A DNA stretch of 25,695 bases, from the IMG/VR virus record IMGVR_UViG_3300024352_000021. One strand, written 5' to 3'. A program made the translations under genes and the position numbers. This document shows positions 8,081 through 25,695 of the stretch, in pieces. The stretch is from an uncultured virus (IMG/VR IMGVR_UViG_3300024352_000021) (lineage: Duplodnaviria > Heunggongvirae > Uroviricota > Caudoviricetes). Under the pieces are notes generated by a model that was not told the DNA's origin, did no database searches, and was given only the letters and a program-made list of their open reading frames with translations. The first letter of the stretch is position 1, and every line of letters starts with the position of its first letter.

Positions 8081-8596
8081 ATGACGACGTTTCCCTCACT
8101 GGTGCCGAATCAAATCAGCTTTGATGCTGGGCGCTCGAACATCAGCGAGGTCTCAACGTATGCCGGACCCGTTCGTTTCCGCCACAGCCAGCGCGTTAAC
8201 GGACACACGTTGCAACTGACATTTCGTGGTCTGAGCCAGGCAGCCGCCGACTCGATCCGCAACCACTATTCCGACAATCAGGGCACGCACGGATACTTTG
8301 AGGTGCCAGCCGGAATCTGGGGCGGGCTAACCGTCGTCAACTCAGATTCCCTCTACCGTTACACATCTCCGCCAGAAGAGCAGCATACTGGGCTCCACTA
8401 CAACGTCAGCATCTCGCTGCGTGTGATCGACGGCGTAACGCTGCTCTACATCTTGGACTGCGGTGGTGCCACACTCCCTGCAAATTCCACGTTCCTGTCG
8501 TTTGCGTTTTCTGGTACTGCGCCATTTATCCTTGACAGTAATGGCGCATCGCCCGCGCCTACATTGTTGTTAGACGGCACAGGTGCGACCCAGTGA
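8081..8596 (+). CDS. Minor tail protein, paralogue of 7405-8079 N-domain
   Basis: MTTFPSLVP...LQLTFRGLSQ...IRNHY...G..GYFEVP. C-terminal repeated (I/L)LD.xGA motifs. Confidence 0.6.
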   Translation: MTTFPSLVPNQISFDAGRSNISEVSTYAGPVRFRHSQRVNGHTLQLTFRGLSQAAADSIRNHYSDNQGTHGYFEVPAGIWGGLTVVNSDSLYRYTSPPEEQHTGLHYNVSISLRVIDGVTLLYILDCGGATLPANSTFLSFAFSGTAPFILDSNGASPAPTLLLDGTGATQ

Positions 8597-11028
8597 CAAC
8601 GCCTACCACAGTTCAAGTACGCCTGAAGCTGCGCCGCGACACGGCAGCAAACTGGACCACCGCTAACCCGGTCCTGCTGGCAGGTGAACTGGGGCTTGAA
8701 AGCGACACCAATAAGATCAAGATTGGCGATGGCACGACGGCTTGGACGAGCCTGGGCTATTTCCCGTTTGTGGTGTCCGGCGGTGTCGTTACCGGCAACC
8801 TGGAGATCGGCACCACTGGCACGCTGACGTTTGAAGGCAGCACTGCCAATAACTTTGAGACCACGCTGGGTGTTGTTGATCCAACGGCAGACCGGACGAT
8901 CAACCTGCCCAACGTCTCGGGCACGATCATTACCACTGGCGACACGGGCACCGTCACCAGCACGATGCTGGCTGATGGCACCATCGTTAATGCTGACGTT
9001 TCCGCGTCTGCCGCTATTGCCCATAGCAAGCTGGCAAACATTACCGCTGGCTATGTGCTGATCGGCAACGCCAGCAACGTCCCAACCGCTACGCAGGTTA
9101 CCGGAGACGTAACCATCAGCAGCGGTGGAGTCACCGCAATTAGCAGCGGCGTCATCGTTGACGGGGACATTTCGGCGTCTGCCGAGATCGCCGTCAGCAA
9201 GTTGGCGGATGGTGCAGCGCGTCAACTACTGCAGACCGATGCTGCTGGCACTGGCGTTGAGTGGACCAGCAATGTAGACGTGCCTGGCACACTGGACGTG
9301 ACTGGTGCTGCCACCTTCGATAGCAGCGTCACAATCACAGGTGATCTAACCGTCAACGGCACGACCACTAATATCAATACTCAAAATCTTGTCGTCGAAG
9401 ACAAGAACGTAATTCTCGGTGATGTTGCTACCCCGAGCGATACCACAGCAAACGGCGGTGGCATCACGCTAAAAGGCGCCACCGATAAGACGATCACCTG
9501 GAGTGACACCACCGACAGCTGGGAGTTCAATCAGCCGACGATCACCACCGGCAGCAGCACCGCCGCCAGCTTCATCCCCACCAGCAGCACGGTGCCCACG
9601 AATGGGGTTTATCTACCCTCCAGCAACAACGTAGCCATCTCGACTAATGGCACTGGGCGGTTGTTTGTGGATGCAAGTGGACGTGTTACAGGGCAGGGCT
9701 TTAGCTCTTATCGCGGCAATACACACACGATTGCCAGCTTTGCGGCGAACACTACGCTAGGTCCACTTAACATTGTCCAAGGGAATATCGGAACGCACCC
9801 TTCAATTTCCGCAGGGCAAAATAGCAGCGGAACGTATGCGTCACTTGGCCTTCTGACCAGTGATAAATATCGTTTGTTGATTGATCCGACAGGTTTATCT
9901 ACATTTACGTCTGATACGTCGACTGCTCCAGTTATTGTCAACATTGGGGCTAGCGAAGTTGCTTGTATTGACTCATCGGGTCGCCTGCTGGTGGGGACGA
10001 GTAGTGCCACTGGTAACGCACTGCTACAGGTTGCTGGTGACGCACTAATCCAGTCACTTAACGGTGGACCGCTGGCTGGGGCTAGGAATCGGATCATCAA
10101 TGGGGATATGCGGATCTCGCAGAGAAATGCTGGGGCGAGTGTGACGGTATCTTCTTACGGTTACGTCTTGGACCGTTGGGGATTTCAATGCTCTGGCGGT
10201 GGTCAGTGGTCTGCACAACGAAGCACAACTGCACCAGCTGGATTTACAAACAGCCTTGCTCTTACGGTTTCAACAGTTGATTCCAGCATTGCTGCAGCCG
10301 ACGTTTATCAGGTGTTCCAAAAAGTCGAAGGCTTTAATGCGGCAGACTTGGCATTTGGCACAGCGTCTGCTTCAACTATTACTGTTTCCTTCTGGGTGCG
10401 CTCTAGCATTACCGGCACTTATTCGGCGTCGATTCAAAACAACGCTTTTAACAGGGGTTTTGTTTCCACCTTCACGATTGATGCTGCAAATACCTGGGAG
10501 AAGAAATCGCTTGTGATTGCTGGGGATACTTCTGGCACTTGGGCAACCGATAACACTATTGGTTTGCAGCTAGCCATTGATCTTGGCTCTGGAAGTAGCT
10601 CAAATGTCACTGCCGGAAGCTGGCAAACCGTAAGCACCTCAACGCTCCGCACCTCGGGTTCCGTCAACTGGATTTCCAACTCTGGTGCAACATTTCTACT
10701 CACCGGCGTCCAACTTGAAGCCGGAACCGTCGCCACCCCGTTTGAACGCAGGAGCTACGGGCAGGAGTTGGCGTTGTGTCAGAGGTATTTTGAAACTGGT
10801 CGAAACAGCATCTGCGTAGGTGGTGGCACGCAAGGCACCCTTACAGATGTAAAACAGACATCTAGCTTTGCGACGACCAAAAGAATTGCAGTATGGAATG
10901 GGACCACCTCAGGTGTCACAGGAACAGTCGCCTCCATCAATACTTTTGTGGATCAAATACAAGTTAACTATTCGGCAGGTGTCAGCAATAATTTCACTTG
11001 CTTCTGGACCGCCTCCGCCGAACTGTAA
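8593..11028 (+). CDS. Tail fibre / receptor-binding protein
   Basis: N-terminal RRDTAANWTTANPVLLAGELGLESDTNKIKIGDG (Mtd-N/hyaluronidase-N-type anchor). T/S/G-rich shaft with R..ID.SG repeats. C-terminal RNRIINGDM...QLEAGTVATPFERRSYGQELALCQRY carbohydrate-binding-like module. Confidence 0.88.
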   Translation: MTTPTTVQVRLKLRRDTAANWTTANPVLLAGELGLESDTNKIKIGDGTTAWTSLGYFPFVVSGGVVTGNLEIGTTGTLTFEGSTANNFETTLGVVDPTADRTINLPNVSGTIITTGDTGTVTSTMLADGTIVNADVSASAAIAHSKLANITAGYVLIGNASNVPTATQVTGDVTISSGGVTAISSGVIVDGDISASAEIAVSKLADGAARQLLQTDAAGTGVEWTSNVDVPGTLDVTGAATFDSSVTITGDLTVNGTTTNINTQNLVVEDKNVILGDVATPSDTTANGGGITLKGATDKTITWSDTTDSWEFNQPTITTGSSTAASFIPTSSTVPTNGVYLPSSNNVAISTNGTGRLFVDASGRVTGQGFSSYRGNTHTIASFAANTTLGPLNIVQGNIGTHPSISAGQNSSGTYASLGLLTSDKYRLLIDPTGLSTFTSDTSTAPVIVNIGASEVACIDSSGRLLVGTSSATGNALLQVAGDALIQSLNGGPLAGARNRIINGDMRISQRNAGASVTVSSYGYVLDRWGFQCSGGGQWSAQRSTTAPAGFTNSLALTVSTVDSSIAAADVYQVFQKVEGFNAADLAFGTASASTITVSFWVRSSITGTYSASIQNNAFNRGFVSTFTIDAANTWEKKSLVIAGDTSGTWATDNTIGLQLAIDLGSGSSSNVTAGSWQTVSTSTLRTSGSVNWISNSGATFLLTGVQLEAGTVATPFERRSYGQELALCQRYFETGRNSICVGGGTQGTLTDVKQTSSFATTKRIAVWNGTTSGVTGTVASINTFVDQIQVNYSAGVSNNFTCFWTASAEL

Positions 11029-12251: not shown

Positions 12252-13169
12252 ATGTATCTTGTTCAAGGGCACCAGTTCGCTAGCCTTCGTGAAGTAGCCG
12301 AAGCCTACAAAATCCCGTACACCACACTGCTGCACCGCCTGGATCGAAACATTTCTCTAGACCAAGCTGTAACGATAAGCTTTGCAGCCCACAAATCCAT
12401 AACGGTAAACGGTAAAACATTTGCTTCTTTTGCTTCAGCCTGTAAAGAGTACAAAGTCGCCAATACGACAGCGTTAAATAGATACAAAAAAGGCTGGACG
12501 CCCGAGCAGATTTTCGGTCTTAGCCCCAAACCTAAGCAAGTACGTAGAATAGACCGCTCCACCGCTAAATGTAAAAGTATAACCGTAAATAACCAGGTTT
12601 ATCCGTCTTACAAAAAGGCTGCCGATGCACACAGCTTTCCATACCAGAAATTTATCAACCGCGTTAAAAAAGGGCTTACTCCCGAACAAGCTCTAGAGCT
12701 AGAACCGTTCCCTGACTGGTTTGTTCCGGGTAAAGGGCAGTTTGCTGTAAAGCGTAAAAAACATAGAGAGCGTGAGGAGATGCGCACTGGTAAACGTAAG
12801 TGCTCAGTGTGCAAAGAGGCTAAGTTACTAAGAGACTTCCATAAGGCTGCGGAAGGGGAATACGCGTTTCGCTGCAGCACTTGCACATCAAAAGCGTTCC
12901 TGCGCTACAGGTACGGTATAACAGTTAAAGAATTTGAGACTTTACTGACCAAGCAAAATAAACAATGCGCTATCTGCAAAACAGCTTTAGAGATAAGCTC
13001 TGACGGCATAAAGAGAACAAAAAACGTTGCTGTGGACCATTGTCATGCCACCGGGGCTGTACGAGGTATTTTGTGTAAAAACTGCAATGTAGGTTTAGGG
13101 TTTTTTCAGGATTCTGTACTCCTCCTTAACAATGCAGCTAATTATCTCAAGCAACATCATGACCACTAG
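12252..13169 (+). CDS. Endonuclease VII-family nuclease with repeated N-terminal DNA-binding units; probable free-standing homing endonuclease
   Basis: C-terminal YGIT..EF..LL.KQ...CAIC...AVDHCH.TG.VRGILC..CN.GLGFF.D motif. Three N-terminal ITVNG..(F/Y).S...A...Y....R...G.(T/S).EQA repeats. AT-rich relative to flanks. Confidence 0.85.
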   Translation: MYLVQGHQFASLREVAEAYKIPYTTLLHRLDRNISLDQAVTISFAAHKSITVNGKTFASFASACKEYKVANTTALNRYKKGWTPEQIFGLSPKPKQVRRIDRSTAKCKSITVNNQVYPSYKKAADAHSFPYQKFINRVKKGLTPEQALELEPFPDWFVPGKGQFAVKRKKHREREEMRTGKRKCSVCKEAKLLRDFHKAAEGEYAFRCSTCTSKAFLRYRYGITVKEFETLLTKQNKQCAICKTALEISSDGIKRTKNVAVDHCHATGAVRGILCKNCNVGLGFFQDSVLLLNNAANYLKQHHDH

Positions 13170-13473
13170 TTATCCAGTCGAATATGCGTTTTTCGCGCTC
13201 ATGGCAGAAGAAAGGTTGCTGTTGATACCAAGCAGAAAAAGGTTGTGCGTCTGACTTAGATATATTGCAGGGAAAACACGCGGGCACAAGATTTGTTTTG
13301 TGTGTCAAACCACCTTTGGACTTCGGCTGTACATGGTCTAACGTGGCAAGCCTCCCAAGATCGTCCCCACAGTAAGCACAGGTGTGCTGCCAACTATTAA
13401 GGATTTCTTGCCTAAAACGAGCTTTCGCTTCCTTTTTATTTAAGTATTCGCCATCTTCAATGCGATGGTCCAT
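13147..13473 (-). CDS. HNH endonuclease
   Basis: CAYCG...TLDHVQPKSKGG....NLVPACFPCNISKS, a canonical Cys-type HNH. Confidence 0.88.
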   Translation of the reverse strand: MDHRIEDGEYLNKKEAKARFRQEILNSWQHTCAYCGDDLGRLATLDHVQPKSKGGLTHKTNLVPACFPCNISKSDAQPFSAWYQQQPFFCHEREKRIFDWITSGHDVA

Positions 13474-21534: not shown

Positions 21535-21784
21535 TCCAATCAGACGTGTCGATTGGAGCCCAGTCGTCGACCCGATCTGTGAGCATGGCCCGGAGTTCGG
21601 CATCGGTCGCTGGAATTAAGTCTTCATCTGAAAAGTAGAGGGTGCCTCGGCACAGGGCAGGCCCCCACTCGGCTGGGTAGAGGTGGCTTTGCGGAATGAC
21701 CACAACCATCTCGTCAACAACGGCATCGACAACAAGATGGTCACCTTCAAAGCGCAGCTCTTCAATGTCAAGTACCTGGCTCAC
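21527..21784 (-). CDS. Hypothetical acidic protein
   Basis: 85 aa, GTGA-coupled. V.AVVDEM.V..PQS..YPAEWGPALC motif. Confidence 0.7.
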   Translation of the reverse strand: MSQVLDIEELRFEGDHLVVDAVVDEMVVVIPQSHLYPAEWGPALCRGTLYFSDEDLIPATDAELRAMLTDRVDDWAPIDTSDWND

Positions 21785-22023
21785 TGGACCTCCTGTACAG
21801 CTTGGCTGGTGCTGAGGGCTTCCATACGCTCGTCCCAGGTCATTTTCAAAAACTGTTCTAGGTCCAGCAGACGCTCCAGCTGAGATTCGTCGTAGCTGGT
21901 GCTGAAGCCCCAGTCTTTGTACTGCCGGATCTTCTGCTCAAGCATGAAACGAGCCCAGCTAACGGCGAAATACCAAGGGCTGAGCTTGGAGCGGTCGAAG
22001 TGAATTTGAAGTGGATCGTCCAT
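21781..22023 (-). CDS. Hypothetical protein, first gene after the intergenic regulatory region
   Basis: 80 aa, preceded by an A/T-rich leader (ATTACTGATTAACAATG). Confidence 0.7.
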   Translation of the reverse strand: MDDPLQIHFDRSKLSPWYFAVSWARFMLEQKIRQYKDWGFSTSYDESQLERLLDLEQFLKMTWDERMEALSTSQAVQEVQ

Positions 22024-22039
22024 TGTTAATCAGTAATAG

Positions 22040-22096
22040 AGGGCCAGCCGGGGCGGGCTTGCCCTTAGTGTTACACAACAGAAGCCCGGTAGCAAG
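22040..22096 (-). promoter_or_regulatory. Putative sigma70-type promoter with 5' leader hairpin
   Basis: Minus strand: TTGCTA-N17-AACACT with TG upstream of the -10, then hairpin AGGGC-A-AGCC / GGCT-G-GCCCT (22040-22065). Confidence 0.45.
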
Positions 22097-22103
22097 CCGG
22101 GCT
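22074..22103 (-). terminator. Terminator-like hairpin downstream of the structured element
   Basis: AGCCCGG / CCGGGCT perfect 7-bp stem (22083-22103), followed on the minus strand by TCTGTTGTG (weak U-tract). Confidence 0.5.
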
Positions 22104-22125
22104 GTCGCATTTCGTTACAACCGTA

Positions 22126-22250
22126 TGGGAGGACTGGTGCTGGCTAGGGTTATCGCCTTGTTTCCTTTTGGTCTCAAGGCGTCCGCTGTGCCCGGCAGCG
22201 GTGAGGCTGGCACCTCGTGCGGACCAGTCACCGGGCACCCCTATTAGCGA
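22126..22250 (-). ncRNA. Candidate structured (pseudoknotted) non-coding RNA
   Basis: At least five complementary segment pairs of 5-8 bp in ~115 nt of intergenic sequence (details in findings). Strand inferred from flanking genes. Confidence 0.55.
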
Positions 22251-22256
22251 AGGTGA

Positions 22257-22493
22257 CTACTGGGTTTCAAGTTCAATAGCAATGGCCAGAAGTTCGGCTC
22301 GTATTGCTGATGCACTTACATCACAGCAAGAATCATACGGAAGACGTGGTGCTGGAACCACCTGATCTGCAGCGGCCCGCAGGGCGGCAGCAGCAATCCA
22401 GCGAGATTCATTGAGGTAGTCGTCAGGATCATAACATTGAGCGTCGTTGGCAGCATCCAGTACCGCCTGCGCGGCGGGGGAGAGATTAGTCAT
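22257..22493 (-). CDS. Array family A protein (LSPAAQAVLDA...AAALRAAA...LLAIA.ELE)
   Basis: 78 aa from MTNLSP. Start overlaps the upstream stop (ATGACTAA). Confidence 0.75.
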   Translation of the reverse strand: MTNLSPAAQAVLDAANDAQCYDPDDYLNESRWIAAAALRAAADQVVPAPRLPYDSCCDVSASAIRAELLAIAIELETQ

Positions 22494-22656
22494 CGTTTTC
22501 TCCAAATGTAAAGTACTCATCAATCTCATTCATCACTCGTTGAGTGAATCGCTCAACAAGCCAATCTTCATTTGCAGTTAGGTCTTCATTGATGATACCT
22601 CCAAGGATTCCACGTTGAACGCATTCTTCAAGAAGTCGAGCGGTGTTTACTTTCAT
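22486..22656 (-). CDS. Array singleton protein (MKVNTARLL..., 56 aa)
   Basis: ATGA overlap at 22653-22656, ends ...ENDD*. More AT-rich than its neighbours. Confidence 0.65.
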   Translation of the reverse strand: MKVNTARLLEECVQRGILGGIINEDLTANEDWLVERFTQRVMNEIDEYFTFGENDD

Positions 22657-22856
22657 CGCTGGGTCTCCAGTTCGGCAGCGATGGCGAGAAGGTCGTCCTC
22701 GCACAAAATGCCATCCCCGGTCGCATGACCAAAACTCAGTTGAAAAGCAGCAGCTCGCAGGGCGGCGGCGGCAATGCGGTGTAGGTCTGTGGGGTGTATG
22801 CAGTCGTCTTCAACGGCATCCAGCACCGCCTGCGCGGCGGGTGATAGGTCAGTCAT
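22653..22856 (-). CDS. Array family A protein
   Basis: 67 aa, MTDLSPAAQAVLDAVEDDCIHPTDLHRIAAAALRAAA...LLAIAAELETQR. Confidence 0.75.
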   Translation of the reverse strand: MTDLSPAAQAVLDAVEDDCIHPTDLHRIAAAALRAAAFQLSFGHATGDGILCEDDLLAIAAELETQR

Positions 22857-22857
22857 C
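22747..22857. repeat. 111-bp direct repeat, copy 1 (copy 2 at 24247-24357)
   Basis: 4 mismatches in 111 bp, last 73 bp identical. Copies are 1500 bp apart. Confidence 0.95.
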
Positions 22858-23199
22858 AAGCTGCTCCAGTGCGCGGCGGATGGTGTCGGTGATCTCTGGA
22901 ATTACAACGCCCATCTCTTCGATGGTGCTCAGCATCTGCAGAGCAATACTGTTGAGTGTTTGTGGCTTGGAGCGGCGAGCGGCGCGGAGTGATGGGATTA
23001 GCTCCGGGTGTGTCGCTAGATTTTGCCAGTGCAGCCACTCACAGCACGCCTCCAGCTCCTGGTCTGCGCCGTACTGAGCAGCCAGTTTGGCTAAGCAAAT
23101 GTCGTCACTACCAACGACTGCACCGGGACCACCGTAGATCTCGTCGGTCCACTGCTGCACCAGCTCCGGCGATGGAGCGATCGGATGCTGTTGTGTCAT
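22849..23199 (-). CDS. Array family B protein (P.ELVQQW...GADQELEACC...LRAARR...IRRALEQLDD)
   Basis: 116 aa, paralogous to 23549-23890 and 25470-25695. Confidence 0.78.
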   Translation of the reverse strand: MTQQHPIAPSPELVQQWTDEIYGGPGAVVGSDDICLAKLAAQYGADQELEACCEWLHWQNLATHPELIPSLRAARRSKPQTLNSIALQMLSTIEEMGVVIPEITDTIRRALEQLDD

Positions 23200-23360
23200 G
23201 GCTTTTTGCGGTTAAGCAGTTTGTTGAAATTAGCCTCTCGCTGCTTGTCCCATTTTTTATCACCCTGCGCCTTGCCGCGCAAAAATGATTCCTGAGACTG
23301 CCCAGGCTTTGGGCCACGAGAAGGAAGGCGTGTGATCTTCCACTCAGTCGGTTCAGCCAT
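23196..23360 (-). CDS. Array singleton basic protein (MAEPTEWKITRL..., 54 aa)
   Basis: 8-nt start/stop overlap with the upstream gene and ATGA overlap with the downstream gene. Confidence 0.65.
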   Translation of the reverse strand: MAEPTEWKITRLPSRGPKPGQSQESFLRGKAQGDKKWDKQREANFNKLLNRKKP

Positions 23361-23556
23361 TGAATTGCTCCAATTCGTTAACAATGTCAAGCACGTCCTG
23401 GCGGATGTCGTCGGCGCCCTTGATGCGCACCGCCAAGGCGGTGAGCGCAGCAGCTAAGCAAACCTCCTGCCAGTTGCCTTCCAGCGGGCCAAGTCGCTCG
23501 TAGCGCTCCTCGAACGCTTCCACGATGGCGCGAGCGGCGGGTGAAAGTTCAGACAT
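23353..23556 (-). CDS. Divergent array family A protein
   Basis: 67 aa, MSELSPAARAIVEA...LAAALTALA...VLDIVNELE. Confidence 0.72.
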   Translation of the reverse strand: MSELSPAARAIVEAFEERYERLGPLEGNWQEVCLAAALTALAVRIKGADDIRQDVLDIVNELEQFNG

Positions 23557-23890
23557 TGTCATCCAGCTGCTCCAGTGCGCGGCGGATGGTTTGGGCGGCG
23601 TTGTTGTTGATGTGCCCACCTTCCCAAGCGTTCTCAAGCATCTCAAGCGCCTGCTCCTTCAAGCTCGGCGGTTTGGGGCGGCGGGCGGCGCGGAGATCAG
23701 CCGCAAGACTTTCCCGAAGATCACGAGTGAAGTAGTTGCAGCACGCCTCCAGCTCCTGGTCTGCGCCCCATTGTGCAGCGCGGGTGGCGAGATAGAGATC
23801 GTCCGAGCTGACTTTGGAGAAACCGGGGCCGCCGTAAAACTCGTCGGCCCATTGCTGCACCAGCTCTGACGGTGGGATCAGATTCTCCAT
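23549..23890 (-). CDS. Array family B protein
   Basis: 113 aa, PPSELVQQW...WGADQELEACC...LRAARRPKPPSLKEQALE...TIRRALEQLDD. Confidence 0.78.
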   Translation of the reverse strand: MENLIPPSELVQQWADEFYGGPGFSKVSSDDLYLATRAAQWGADQELEACCNYFTRDLRESLAADLRAARRPKPPSLKEQALEMLENAWEGGHINNNAAQTIRRALEQLDDNV

Positions 23891-24120
23891 TTGATTCCAT
23901 CTCCTTTGAGTCCGTTTGCAGTGATCACAGCTTCAAACAACTGCAGCGCATGGCGAATGCTGTAGATGTCGCCAGTCAAGTCCTCATAGCGGTACGAATC
24001 GTCCTCCTCAAGGGACGTTTCAAGCGCACCATCCATGCGGCGCAGTGCCGTATGGGCAGCGCAGATAGCGCTATACGCTCCATGCAACGCCTCATGCACG
24101 GCATCGTGTGGGTCAGTCAT
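23878..24120 (-). CDS. Array singleton helical protein
   Basis: 80 aa, MTDPHDAVHEAL..., ATGA-coupled. Confidence 0.65.
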   Translation of the reverse strand: MTDPHDAVHEALHGAYSAICAAHTALRRMDGALETSLEEDDSYRYEDLTGDIYSIRHALQLFEAVITANGLKGDGIKWRI

Positions 24121-24503
24121 CGGTTTTCGGTGGTAAAGGTTTTTAGTTCGTCGGCGATGGCGAGGATGCTTCGTCGCGTGATCTCGCGCTGCACCGCGGC
24201 AGCGTTCTCTGGCGGCCCAAATTGATTTTCCGGCACCACCTGATCTGCAGCAGCTCGCAGGGCGGCGGCGGCAATATGGTGCAAGTCTGTGGGGTGTATG
24301 CAGTCGTCTTCAACGGCATCCAGCACCGCCTGCGCGGCGGGTGATAGGTCAGTCATCTTCGCTGGGCAGAATCTCAAGAAGGGATGTGATGCAAGGACGC
24401 GTTGATCAAACGAGCTAATCACAGAAACTGGACCGCCGTATAGCTCTTCCAGCCACTGCCGCACCGGCTCCGACGGTGGGGTGATGGGGTGTTGACTGGT
24501 CAT
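24117..24503 (-). CDS. Chimeric ORF: family B N-terminus fused through an out-of-frame remnant to an intact family A gene (internal ATG 24356)
   Basis: MTSQHPITPPSEPVRQW...YGGP (B-type), then ASHPFLRFCPAK (remnant), then MTDLSPAAQAVLDA... (A-type). Confidence 0.7.
   Translation of the reverse strand: MTSQHPITPPSEPVRQWLEELYGGPVSVISSFDQRVLASHPFLRFCPAKMTDLSPAAQAVLDAVEDDCIHPTDLHHIAAAALRAAADQVVPENQFGPPENAAAVQREITRRSILAIADELKTFTTENR
24247..24357. repeat. 111-bp direct repeat, copy 2
   Basis: See 22747-22857. Confidence 0.95.
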
Positions 24504-24781
24504 TCTTCGACCTCATAGCGCTTGCCGATGGCAGCAGCCCAAGCCACCAGATCACTGGCACGCACAAGCTGCACTCCATCTTCAGGGCCATCGGCAACAC
24601 GCCAATGACATGAGGCAGTGTCCTTCAGGGCGCACTCGATGGCAGACTTCGCGCCCCAGGTTGCAGCCTTAGCAGCGATGTAGAGGGCTTTGTTGCAATG
24701 GGCGGCACCGTTGGTGTCCCATTCGGCTTCCCATTGGCGGATGATTTTGGCGGGTGGAGAGATTAGGCGTTGATCAGTCAT
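24500..24781 (-). CDS. Array protein with divergent family B N-terminus (93 aa)
   Basis: MTDQRLISPPAKIIRQW...LYIAAKAATWGA resembles the B N-half. C-half unrelated. Confidence 0.68.
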   Translation of the reverse strand: MTDQRLISPPAKIIRQWEAEWDTNGAAHCNKALYIAAKAATWGAKSAIECALKDTASCHWRVADGPEDGVQLVRASDLVAWAAAIGKRYEVEE

Positions 24782-24956
24782 CGTCGTCAGGTAGAACTTC
24801 AAGAAGGGATGAGATGCACTGGCCGGTGATGTTCTCAGCGCCGAGGCAGTAGCGCTCGGCTTCGCGCAGTGCCATGCGCAGCCGCTCCACAACGGGCCAG
24901 GGATCGCGTAGCTCGGTGGAGAAGTCTTGAAAGGGTGCTGGGTGGAAGTCGCTCAT
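24774..24956 (-). CDS. Array family C protein (60 aa)
   Basis: MSDFHPAPFQDF...CISSLLEVLPDDDD*. A homologous 3' remnant lies at 24349-24393. Confidence 0.68.
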   Translation of the reverse strand: MSDFHPAPFQDFSTELRDPWPVVERLRMALREAERYCLGAENITGQCISSLLEVLPDDDD

Positions 24957-25477
24957 TGCTGCACCTCCTCTAGCAACAGATCAGCAAGCTCCTCAAAAGG
25001 TGCGAGCCAGTCGTCGTCGCGCTTCCGGTCAATCAACCACGCCGCCACCGTGCGGATCGCAGCGCGGGCTTCTTCCTCCCAGTTGATGGGTTCATCGTCT
25101 CGACCGATAGCGCGGGCTACCTGATCCACCAGCGAATTACCAACTTGGTTTGAAGTAGAAGTTGGCGTCATGCCAACCCTAAAATCGGGCGTCAGTAATG
25201 CTTTTAACTCTGCCTGCTGCTTTGCAGTAAGTTTCAGAGGTTTGCTGATCTGGTGGACTTTTGATGCTTGGCGTTCAGCAGCCTCTAACGATTCAACCCG
25301 GCTAAATAAAGCCACAATGTTTGAATTCGTTTCGACAATGTGCTTGTGAGCCGCATCTTCTAGCGTCTTGACCCTGGCGCGGAGTTCAAGGATGCAGGTT
25401 TGAGGAGCGTAGCCGTATTCATCAGACCAATGCTCTATTTCGGCCCATTGCTTGGGCGTTGCTGTGTAATCAGTCAT
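24953..25477 (-). CDS. Array protein with internal L.L..RV..LE repeat
   Basis: 174 aa: ILELRARVKTLE / IVALFSRVESLE, then SLVDQVARAI...EARAAIRTVAAWL. Confidence 0.7.
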   Translation of the reverse strand: MTDYTATPKQWAEIEHWSDEYGYAPQTCILELRARVKTLEDAAHKHIVETNSNIVALFSRVESLEAAERQASKVHQISKPLKLTAKQQAELKALLTPDFRVGMTPTSTSNQVGNSLVDQVARAIGRDDEPINWEEEARAAIRTVAAWLIDRKRDDDWLAPFEELADLLLEEVQQ

Positions 25478-25695
25478 CGAGTTGCTCCAGTGCGCGGCGG
25501 ATGATTGATAACGCGTTGTCGTCTAGGTAGTCGCTTTCAGGGTCGGTGCAGCCGTCGATCAGCTCCAACGCCTGCTCCTTCAAGCTCGGTGCCTTGGGGC
25601 GGCGGGCGGCGCGGAGCGAAGGGATCAGTTCGGGATGTGTGGCCAGGTTTTGCCAGTGAAGCCACTCACAACACGCCTCCAGTTCCTGGTCGGCG
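25470..25695 (-). CDS. Array family B protein (5'-partial, runs off the window), not in the ORF track
   Basis: ADQELEACCEWLHWQNLATHPELIPSLRAARRPKAPSLKEQALELIDGCTDPESDYLDDNALSIIRRALEQLDD*. Confidence 0.8.
   Translation of the reverse strand, partial: ADQELEACCEWLHWQNLATHPELIPSLRAARRPKAPSLKEQALELIDGCTDPESDYLDDNALSIIRRALEQLDD

Follow-up and report, generated by a model that had tools for sequence, protein, structure and literature searches.

Comparative sequence evidence for a conserved structured RNA module of about 105 nucleotides in uncultured freshwater tailed phages

The DNA analysed here is a stretch of 25,695 nt from an uncultured tailed phage, which we refer to as the window. As judged from comparison with related sequences, it carries a conserved structured RNA module of about 105 nt that is present once per genome in uncultured freshwater tailed phages. 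A covariance model (R1), built from 46 copies, matched the window at a single place, 22246-22142 on the minus strand, with 61.3 bits and an E value of 2e-14. The element is read from 22246 to 22142, and this extent replaces that of the first-pass annotation of the same DNA, which had set the borders at 22258 and 22126. All segments named in that annotation were found on the minus strand where it had placed them when 22260-22130 was checked base by base. Its proposal of a structured non-coding RNA, and not chance pairing or a coding segment, is borne out by covariation in more than 150 copies, by length changes that are not multiples of three and by the lack of a match in Rfam. No conserved open frame was found in the homologues, and the element is considered non-coding because one bulge differs by 4 nt between copies and the lengths of one hairpin (P4, see below) vary by non-multiples of three. 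We hold with high confidence that the element is a selected, folded nucleic acid.

Comparison with known RNAs was done with Rfam 15 (4227 models, among them PhotoRC, HDV, CPEB3, hammerhead, twister, pistol, hatchet, ykkC-III, ZTP, HEARO and Yfr1/2). Over the whole window no model matched at its gathering threshold, which excludes the cyanophage motifs manA and wcaG that had been named as candidates. At relaxed E values, the region 21950-22400 gave just four matches (E 2-8.3, 10.8-15.7 bits), all far below threshold. Within the scope of Rfam 15 the element thus appears to match no described RNA family. ARAGORN detected neither tRNA nor tmRNA genes in the window. The novelty claimed is at the level of an RNA family. 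The motif is abundant in river and lake viromes, where it stays single copy and moves between contexts as a unit.

The window itself is phage DNA. Structural and lysis genes lie on the plus strand, and the minus-strand genes between 16.5 and 25.7 kb encode a DNA polymerase A, a dCTP deaminase-like protein, a DUF3310 protein and an HTH protein. A DNA similarity search of the window against 50,697 phage records gave no match, and its DNA polymerase is only 25-28% identical to those of cultured phages; the lineage has no cultured relative. G001, the nearest virus record in the comparison, is complete at 42.5 kb and bears terminal repeats. PF00940, the T7-type RNA polymerase family, was not matched in G001, and the control genomes were likewise unmatched. 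Two further genes may be recorded here, an 811-aa tail-fibre-like protein with an Mtd_N domain (PF18454) on the plus strand of the window (8593-11028) and, in a related phage (G006; L293:6004-7107, minus strand), a full sigma-70 family factor with regions 1.2, 2, 3 and 4.

Relatives were fetched with an 80-aa ORF downstream of the element (21781-22023, minus strand) as anchor, which yielded 47 viral loci. In most of these the intergenic DNA upstream of the ORF is conserved, and a 60-nt core keeps about 90% identity in loci whose protein has dropped to 57-60%. The element is missing from the relatives L025-L031, and L004/5/7 and L024 have deletions in its 3' part. A pattern derived from the core matched at least 120 stretches of viral contigs. 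Removal of duplicates and of four chance matches, three of them in a coding gene, left 94 distinct copies. The covariance model identified the element in 95 of 100 viral loci (picked from 168, duplicates dropped) and in 69 of 100 metagenome loci (119 fetched); 46 of these 69 had previously unseen cores. Five further phage records, of which four are rated complete, contained exactly one copy each. A scan of genome contigs with the pattern matched at least 120 stretches, nearly all of them chance matches in GC-rich bacteria, and 120 were searched with the model. Among the matches listed, the only true copies were two phage-like contigs assigned to MAGs, L249 and L263; L233 (26 bits) turned out to be coding sequence and L285 (17 bits) a partial match, and neither was counted. 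Samples of bacterial genomes gave no copy, neither with the covariance model in 151 picocyanobacterial genomes (from the order that includes a Cyanobium MAG, with no more than 25 candidates scored in each) nor by DNA search in 401 Burkholderiales and 401 Cyanobacteria genomes; being samples, these are no proof of absence.

Covariation among the homologues supports four helices, termed P1, P2', P4 and Px. Unless indicated otherwise, all features described below are on the minus strand. P1 is a 9-bp stem between GUGCCCGGU (22230-22238) and GCCGGGCAC (22188-22196) and includes the stem GTGCCCGG/CCGGGCAC of the first-pass annotation, which is thereby backed by covariation. Changes on both sides were seen at 4 of its 9 pairs. 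Alignment columns 12-60 are GC in 62 copies, CG in 28 and UA in one, and columns 11-61 are GC in 79, AU in 11 and GU in 4. The pair 17-55 is U.G in 93 of 94 to 94 of 95 copies. P2' is a hairpin of GACUGG (22224-22229) and CCAGCC (22205-22210) that had been overlooked because the window copy has an A.C mismatch there. In the relatives its pairs 20-40 and 21-39 covary strongly. Columns 18-23 and 37-42 are paired in 97.7% of cases, and pair 21-39 is UA in 48, GC in 43 and CG in 4 copies. P2' closes a 13-nt apical loop, UCCGCACGAGGUG (22211-22223) in the window and UCCUCACGCGGUG in most copies. This loop is nearly invariant, also in copies that were fetched via the neighbouring gene rather than via the loop pattern, and it remains so where the flanking protein drops to 57% identity. 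On the 3' side, a bulge of 8-12 nt separates P2' from P1. P4 (CGCCUUG ... CAAGGCG with an A-rich loop, 22154-22181) was already recognized in the first-pass annotation. It is the variable hairpin, with changes on both sides at 10 of 10 pairs and covariation in two copy sets. The 3' tail AUAACCCUAGCC (22142-22153) contains an invariant A and a conserved UA, as defined by the alignment columns.

The nested structure of P1, P2' and P4 was tested against shuffled alignments. In the 95-copy alignment 90.0% of cells pair, compared to 80.1% after shuffling, and 17 of 25 pairs have changes on both sides. None of 500 shuffles matched the observed value on any of five measures. As a control, the partners were slid by 1-3 columns, and pairing fell to 54% or less. 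The 69 metagenome copies served as a replicate and gave 90.4% pairing versus 76.6%, with a covariation score of 0.350 versus 0.132. In a scan for mutual information, the eight strongest pairs all fell within P1, P2', P4 or Px.

In contrast to these helices, most of the tertiary arrangement proposed earlier could not be maintained. The three-way junction with two pseudoknots had been closed by TAGGG/CCCTA, and the duplex of each flank with its own tail (-7.76 kcal/mol) is no better than that with mismatched partners (-7.68 kcal/mol, p 0.38). The pseudoknot of GACTGGT with the tail ACCAGTC likewise failed its control (-10.03 versus -9.72 kcal/mol, p 0.18, n=32). A pairing of the loop, TCCGC/GCGGA, was equalled by 133 of 500 shuffles. 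In place of the GAGG of the GAGG/CCTC mini-hairpin, most copies have GCGG, and the AGTCACC leader of a supposed competing helix occurs in just 7 of 94 copies. Two further candidate helices, one between the loop and a GGAC 3' of Px and one of GCGGUG with CACCGC, drew no support from covariation, for which the nearly invariant loop offers hardly any changes.

The pairing CCGCT/AGCGG had been proposed as a second pseudoknot. The helix itself covaries and is our Px, formed by CCGCUG (22196-22201), which lies in the 3' bulge between P2' and P1, and CAGCGG (22183-22188). Its coexistence with P1 is doubtful; by geometry, Px would be an alternative to P1 in about half of the family. Pair 54-65 (AU in 66, UA in 22 copies) is the third-strongest mutual-information pair of the alignment, and pair 49-70 is CG in 45 and AU in 12 copies. 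The covariation score of Px is 0.134 versus 0.034, and none of 500 shuffles reached the observed value. The two Px strands lie on either side of the 3' strand of P1, 0-1 nt away from it, and the linker between P2' and Px measures just 3-4 nt in roughly half of the family members. Because of this spacing and the short linker, simple helix geometry suggests that P1 and Px could not coexist and would be alternative states. Folding with either helix enforced gave the P1 state as the more stable one in 82 of 94 copies, with a mean gap of 6.7 kcal/mol and a gap of 3.7 kcal/mol in the window.

Two competing conserved helices provide a concrete hypothesis that can be tested at the bench. One possible reading, although a rather unlikely one, is a cis-acting two-state switch in which a ligand, a protein or a terminating ribosome would select P1 or Px and thereby set read-through, stability or processing. 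The covariation of both exclusive helices and the modest energy gap between them are in line with such a switch, as are the many conserved unpaired bases, which are typical of binding pockets, the stop codon that lies 0-18 nt from P1 in most copies and the terminator-like hairpin downstream in the window. However, neither the gene downstream nor an expression platform is constant, with four downstream contexts occurring among the 94 copies, and no upstream ORF ends next to the element in 27 of them. In addition, Px has a C.A mismatch in 54 of 94 copies. Of the general marks of riboswitches, the element thus has two exclusive conserved folds, with the exclusion deduced from geometry, and lacks a constant position in a 5' leader.

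We next describe the surroundings of the element. The first-pass annotation had it directly after the last gene of an array and followed by a terminator-like hairpin. This is correct for the window and is one of several contexts, not the rule, in the family. In the window, the last gene of the small-gene array is a 90-aa ORF without a Pfam family (22257-22529, minus strand), whose stop codon TAG (22259-22257) is 10 nt ahead of the model match. The array (22257-25695, minus strand) consists of small paralogous genes, one kind of which starts M(T/S)DLSPAAQAV.. and another of which ends ..RRALEQLDD; these kinds have no Pfam family, and loci of other phages, such as L289 and L292, show the same kinds of gene next to the element. 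Downstream lies the terminator-like hairpin AGCCCGG..CCGGGCU with a U-rich tail (22073-22103), which was detected by a terminator scan. The scan picked it up on the minus strand (22103-22083) and also on the plus strand (22087-22107), as expected of a two-way terminator. A conserved box, TGTGTAACACTAAGGGCAAG (22058-22077), precedes the 80-aa ORF. The box, TGTG(T/C)AACACTAAGGGCAAG, is probably a promoter, because it is kept in the element-less relatives L025-L031 together with TTGACC about 17 nt upstream.

Of the 94 copies, 67 have the stop codon of an ORF of 40 or more codons no more than about 40 nt upstream. A T-arm-like sequence is found upstream in 8 copies. L311 has a tRNA-Leu gene 21 nt upstream on the same strand, and in L303 a tRNA, a 77-nt tRNA-like fold and the element follow in series. 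The 3' end of such a tRNA or tRNA-like sequence is 14-29 nt ahead of P1. Downstream, the element is followed by an HNH gene in 41 copies, by the conserved box within 160 nt in 32, by a hairpin and an ATG in 8 and by other sequence in 13. The element therefore has the character of a self-contained module placed where transcription units end, within a neighbourhood of small RNAs and homing endonucleases. It marks a small-RNA island with tRNA, tRNA-like fold, abiF RNA and HNH gene. The 77-nt fold lies directly upstream of the element in L075:298-375 and also in L145, L104, L289 and L303. It has a 7-bp acceptor stem (CACCCAG/CUGGGUG), a T-arm and a tetraloop hairpin in place of the anticodon arm, and it was neither called by ARAGORN nor matched in Rfam at E 0.1. 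At L152:177-213, the abiF RNA motif (RF03085, 52.8 bits, E 3.7e-07) precedes a T-arm-like sequence and the element by about 80 nt. This RNA is otherwise tied to abortive-infection genes, and a copy carried by a phage could act as a decoy.

The HNH gene found in 41 of 94 copies is a convergent gene for a 105-aa protein (PF01844, 41-100% protein identity) that overlaps the tail by 0-15 nt. This overlap, together with the coincidence of the conservation border with a strain breakpoint (see below), raises the idea that the element is the RNA partner or the homing target of the small endonuclease and that both form one mobile unit. We regard this as improbable. The remaining 53 copies have no adjacent HNH gene, and the homologue in the window, which shares 38% identity with the HNH genes adjoining the element, is 8.7 kb away; the same values apply to G001. 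The adjacency may also be inherited within one phage lineage. Moreover, homing endonuclease genes commonly sit in clusters of stable RNAs without making use of the RNA, which counts against such a unit. The window homologue (13147-13473, minus strand) encodes a 108-aa HNH endonuclease and runs towards an endonuclease VII/HTH gene (12252-13169), with whose 3' end it overlaps.

The strand from which an RNA would be made was considered separately. The minus strand was first chosen because of G.U pairs, with columns 10-62 in 69 copies and 23-37 in 34 in addition to the U.G at 17-55. The full count is less clear. Read in the sense direction, G.U and A.C were counted as 168 and 5 in P1, 35 and 10 in P2', 2 and 62 in Px and 66 and 48 in P4, and without the two near-invariant end pairs 109 G.U stand against 125 A.C. 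The C.A mismatches inside P2', P4 and Px would be G.U pairs on the other strand. Folding stability does not distinguish the strands either. The window copy reached a minimum free energy of -49.1 kcal/mol, compared to -42.7 +/- 3.7 kcal/mol for shuffles (z -1.73). Taken by itself, the window copy thus exceeds shuffled controls, a comparison named in the first-pass annotation, by a modest margin, with 9 of 200 shuffles being equally stable. The plus strand of the window gave a z of -1.45, and over the 94 homologues the mean z was -2.26 for sense and -2.17 for antisense (p 0.28). The window context favours the minus strand as the RNA strand, because all neighbouring genes are on it and the plus-strand terminator-like hairpin would stop antisense transcription before the element. 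The orientation after tRNA or tRNA-like sequence in L311 and L303 agrees with this. In 41 of 94 copies, however, it is the opposite strand that continues from the HNH gene.

The balance of G.U and A.C intermediates and the equal z-scores of the two strands would be expected if the element acted on both strands, as a barrier or terminator between converging units, as a sense/antisense pair, or as a folded single-stranded DNA site for a nuclease, a recombinase or replication. Its position between a converging ORF and the HNH gene in at least 23 of 94 copies fits as well, and so do the single copy per genome, the integrase or recombinase genes 1-2.5 kb away in G003, G004 and G005, and a strain variant in which the element is exchanged exactly at the border 22245 for a sequence with a GC hairpin. 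Nevertheless, an invariant 13-nt loop and tail are not what terminators or barriers maintain, and a cruciform is implausible with P1 enclosing 38 nt. No intrinsic terminator, that is a GC hairpin with a U-run, was found inside 22142-22246; no U-run follows the element, and a separate terminator-like hairpin lies at 22103-22083 of the window. G001 has no tyrosine integrase. A replication origin at the element was rejected, since cumulative GC skew in five genomes had no consistent extreme there. Overall, we consider a both-strand function unlikely.

Six river metatranscriptome runs contain the stretch, as contigs that give no strand, ends or level and may reflect DNA carry-over. Contigs over the element were X16 21641-22775, X22 21956-22495, X23 22171-22416 and X24 22098-22460. 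In X23, the contig 22171-22416 is the deepest on the compared stretch. In X24, the least-covered run, 22098-22460 is the only contig within a 3-kb stretch, save one at its far edge. Gaps between contigs were given no weight. A contig of X16 agrees with the window at 22245 and above and departs from it below this point; the sequence found there instead opens, in the minus-strand reading, with a plain GC hairpin. A co-occurring strain in this run thus has the same upstream gene and another sequence in place of the element, exactly from its 5' border at 22245.

As the best explanation we tentatively propose, while giving it less than an even chance, that the element gives rise to a small RNA through maturation of transcript 3' ends and that this RNA binds through the invariant loop. 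In the ground state, the 9-bp P1 stacks directly on the 6-bp P2', which presents the near-invariant 13-nt loop UCCUCACGCGGUG; the 3' bulge, the variable P4 and a short tail with its fixed A and UA follow, and Px competes with P1. The module would be produced as the 3'-terminal part of an upstream transcript, which in the window would correspond to the 3' UTR of the last array gene, with the transcript ending at the terminator-like hairpin 39 nt beyond the element, and elsewhere to the trailer of a tRNA or tRNA-like gene. Maturation would yield a stable small RNA whose loop binds a partner, either RNA or protein. The alternation of P1 and Px could reflect refolding that is coupled to 5' processing or to a ribosome that stops 0-18 nt upstream.

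This small-RNA reading would account for the single copy, the invariant loop, the positions in tRNA clusters and 3' UTRs, the A/U-rich leader, the terminator in the window and the dispensability of the element. Deletion variants (L004, L024) and relatives lacking the element (L025-L031) indicate that it is dispensable, as an accessory RNA would be. The strand symmetry and the copies without a terminator are left unexplained. Against the reading stand the 41 of 94 copies that have no terminator-like RNA end and in which the convergent HNH gene overlaps the tail. A search of the window for targets of the loop gave two matches at up to three mismatches, one of them the element itself, with 2.5 expected, and a scan for a promoter-like site found none. 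A more far-reaching interpretation, to which we give a low probability, is a new class of catalytic or switching RNA. It could be a module that cleaves or refolds itself and by which phages define the 3' termini of mRNAs and tRNA precursors, P1 and Px being its two working states, or, bolder still, the RNA subunit of the adjacent 105-aa HNH nuclease.

Catalysis leads to the comparison with HDV-like and theta ribozymes. In common with these, the element is about 100 nt or less, has the 3' strand of its first helix after an internal hairpin, forms a helix with bases just 3' of P1, has a variable distal hairpin and lies in phage intergenic DNA near tRNAs. The order P1, hairpin, P1', hairpin resembles that of the HDV-like fold. 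A C is frequently found directly 3' of P4 in the alignment, and the catalytic C of HDV-like ribozymes is the first position of J4/2. Size, crossing helix, invariant unpaired bases and the site by tRNA genes recall small ribozymes, and a self-cleaving ribozyme of a new class or a far HDV-like variant, which would cut the transcript to free the upstream mRNA or tRNA, was weighed as an explanation. It is a doubtful one. No Rfam ribozyme family matched even at E up to 10. The element has no partner for a P2, which in the nested double pseudoknot of these ribozymes involves the 3' tail; 5' flank, tail and 3' flank all failed controls, with pairings of the tail to the 5' flank and of the 3' flank to the inner strand being no better than cross-sequence controls. 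Px differs from the HDV-like arrangement in that it uses the strand after the internal hairpin and not the hairpin loop, and in that it excludes P1. PMC10879173 describes theta ribozymes of gut phages as adjoining phage tRNAs, with about 5 nt at most between cleavage site and tRNA end, whereas the spacing from P1 is 14-29 nt here. Furthermore, RNA contigs of four runs bridge both borders of the element, which is a weak argument as these are contigs and not reads.

Bacterial small RNAs derived from 3' UTRs or tRNA trailers are made from the end of a longer transcript. The element resembles them in the A/U-rich stretch ahead of a structured body and, in the window, in the terminator-like hairpin that closes the unit. 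Compared to typical seed-type small RNAs, it is far more structured and conserved, and 41 of 94 contexts have no terminator.

The loop also contains UCCUCAC, which overlaps the motif of the cyanobacterial RNAs Yfr1 and Yfr10. In passages of PMC6778093, UCCU is given as essential in the Yfr1 motif, and the motif of Yfr10 lies in a hairpin loop; a 10-mer of the motif occurs in PMC2190773 and in other papers. The element shares 7 nt only with these RNAs, matches no Rfam Yfr family and was not found in the sampled cyanobacterial genomes. Because no cyanobacterial copy was found in these samples, we treat the likeness as a lead and not as a relationship.

Finally, the motif was compared with the covariation screen of IMG/VR-type viral contigs by Fremin, Bhatt and Kyrpides (2023), for which parts of PMC10690425 give 10,006 candidates. 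The loop sequence was absent from the six supplement files searched. It was also not found in a text search of the literature, and passages of the Minerva preprint (10.64898/2026.09.22.753630) do not mention the motif. We consider the motif a new RNA family, which may be among those 10,006 candidates and may stand unnamed in that catalogue. Orphan motifs with comparable covariation and fixed unpaired bases have often proved to be riboswitches, ribozymes or RNAs with a protein partner.
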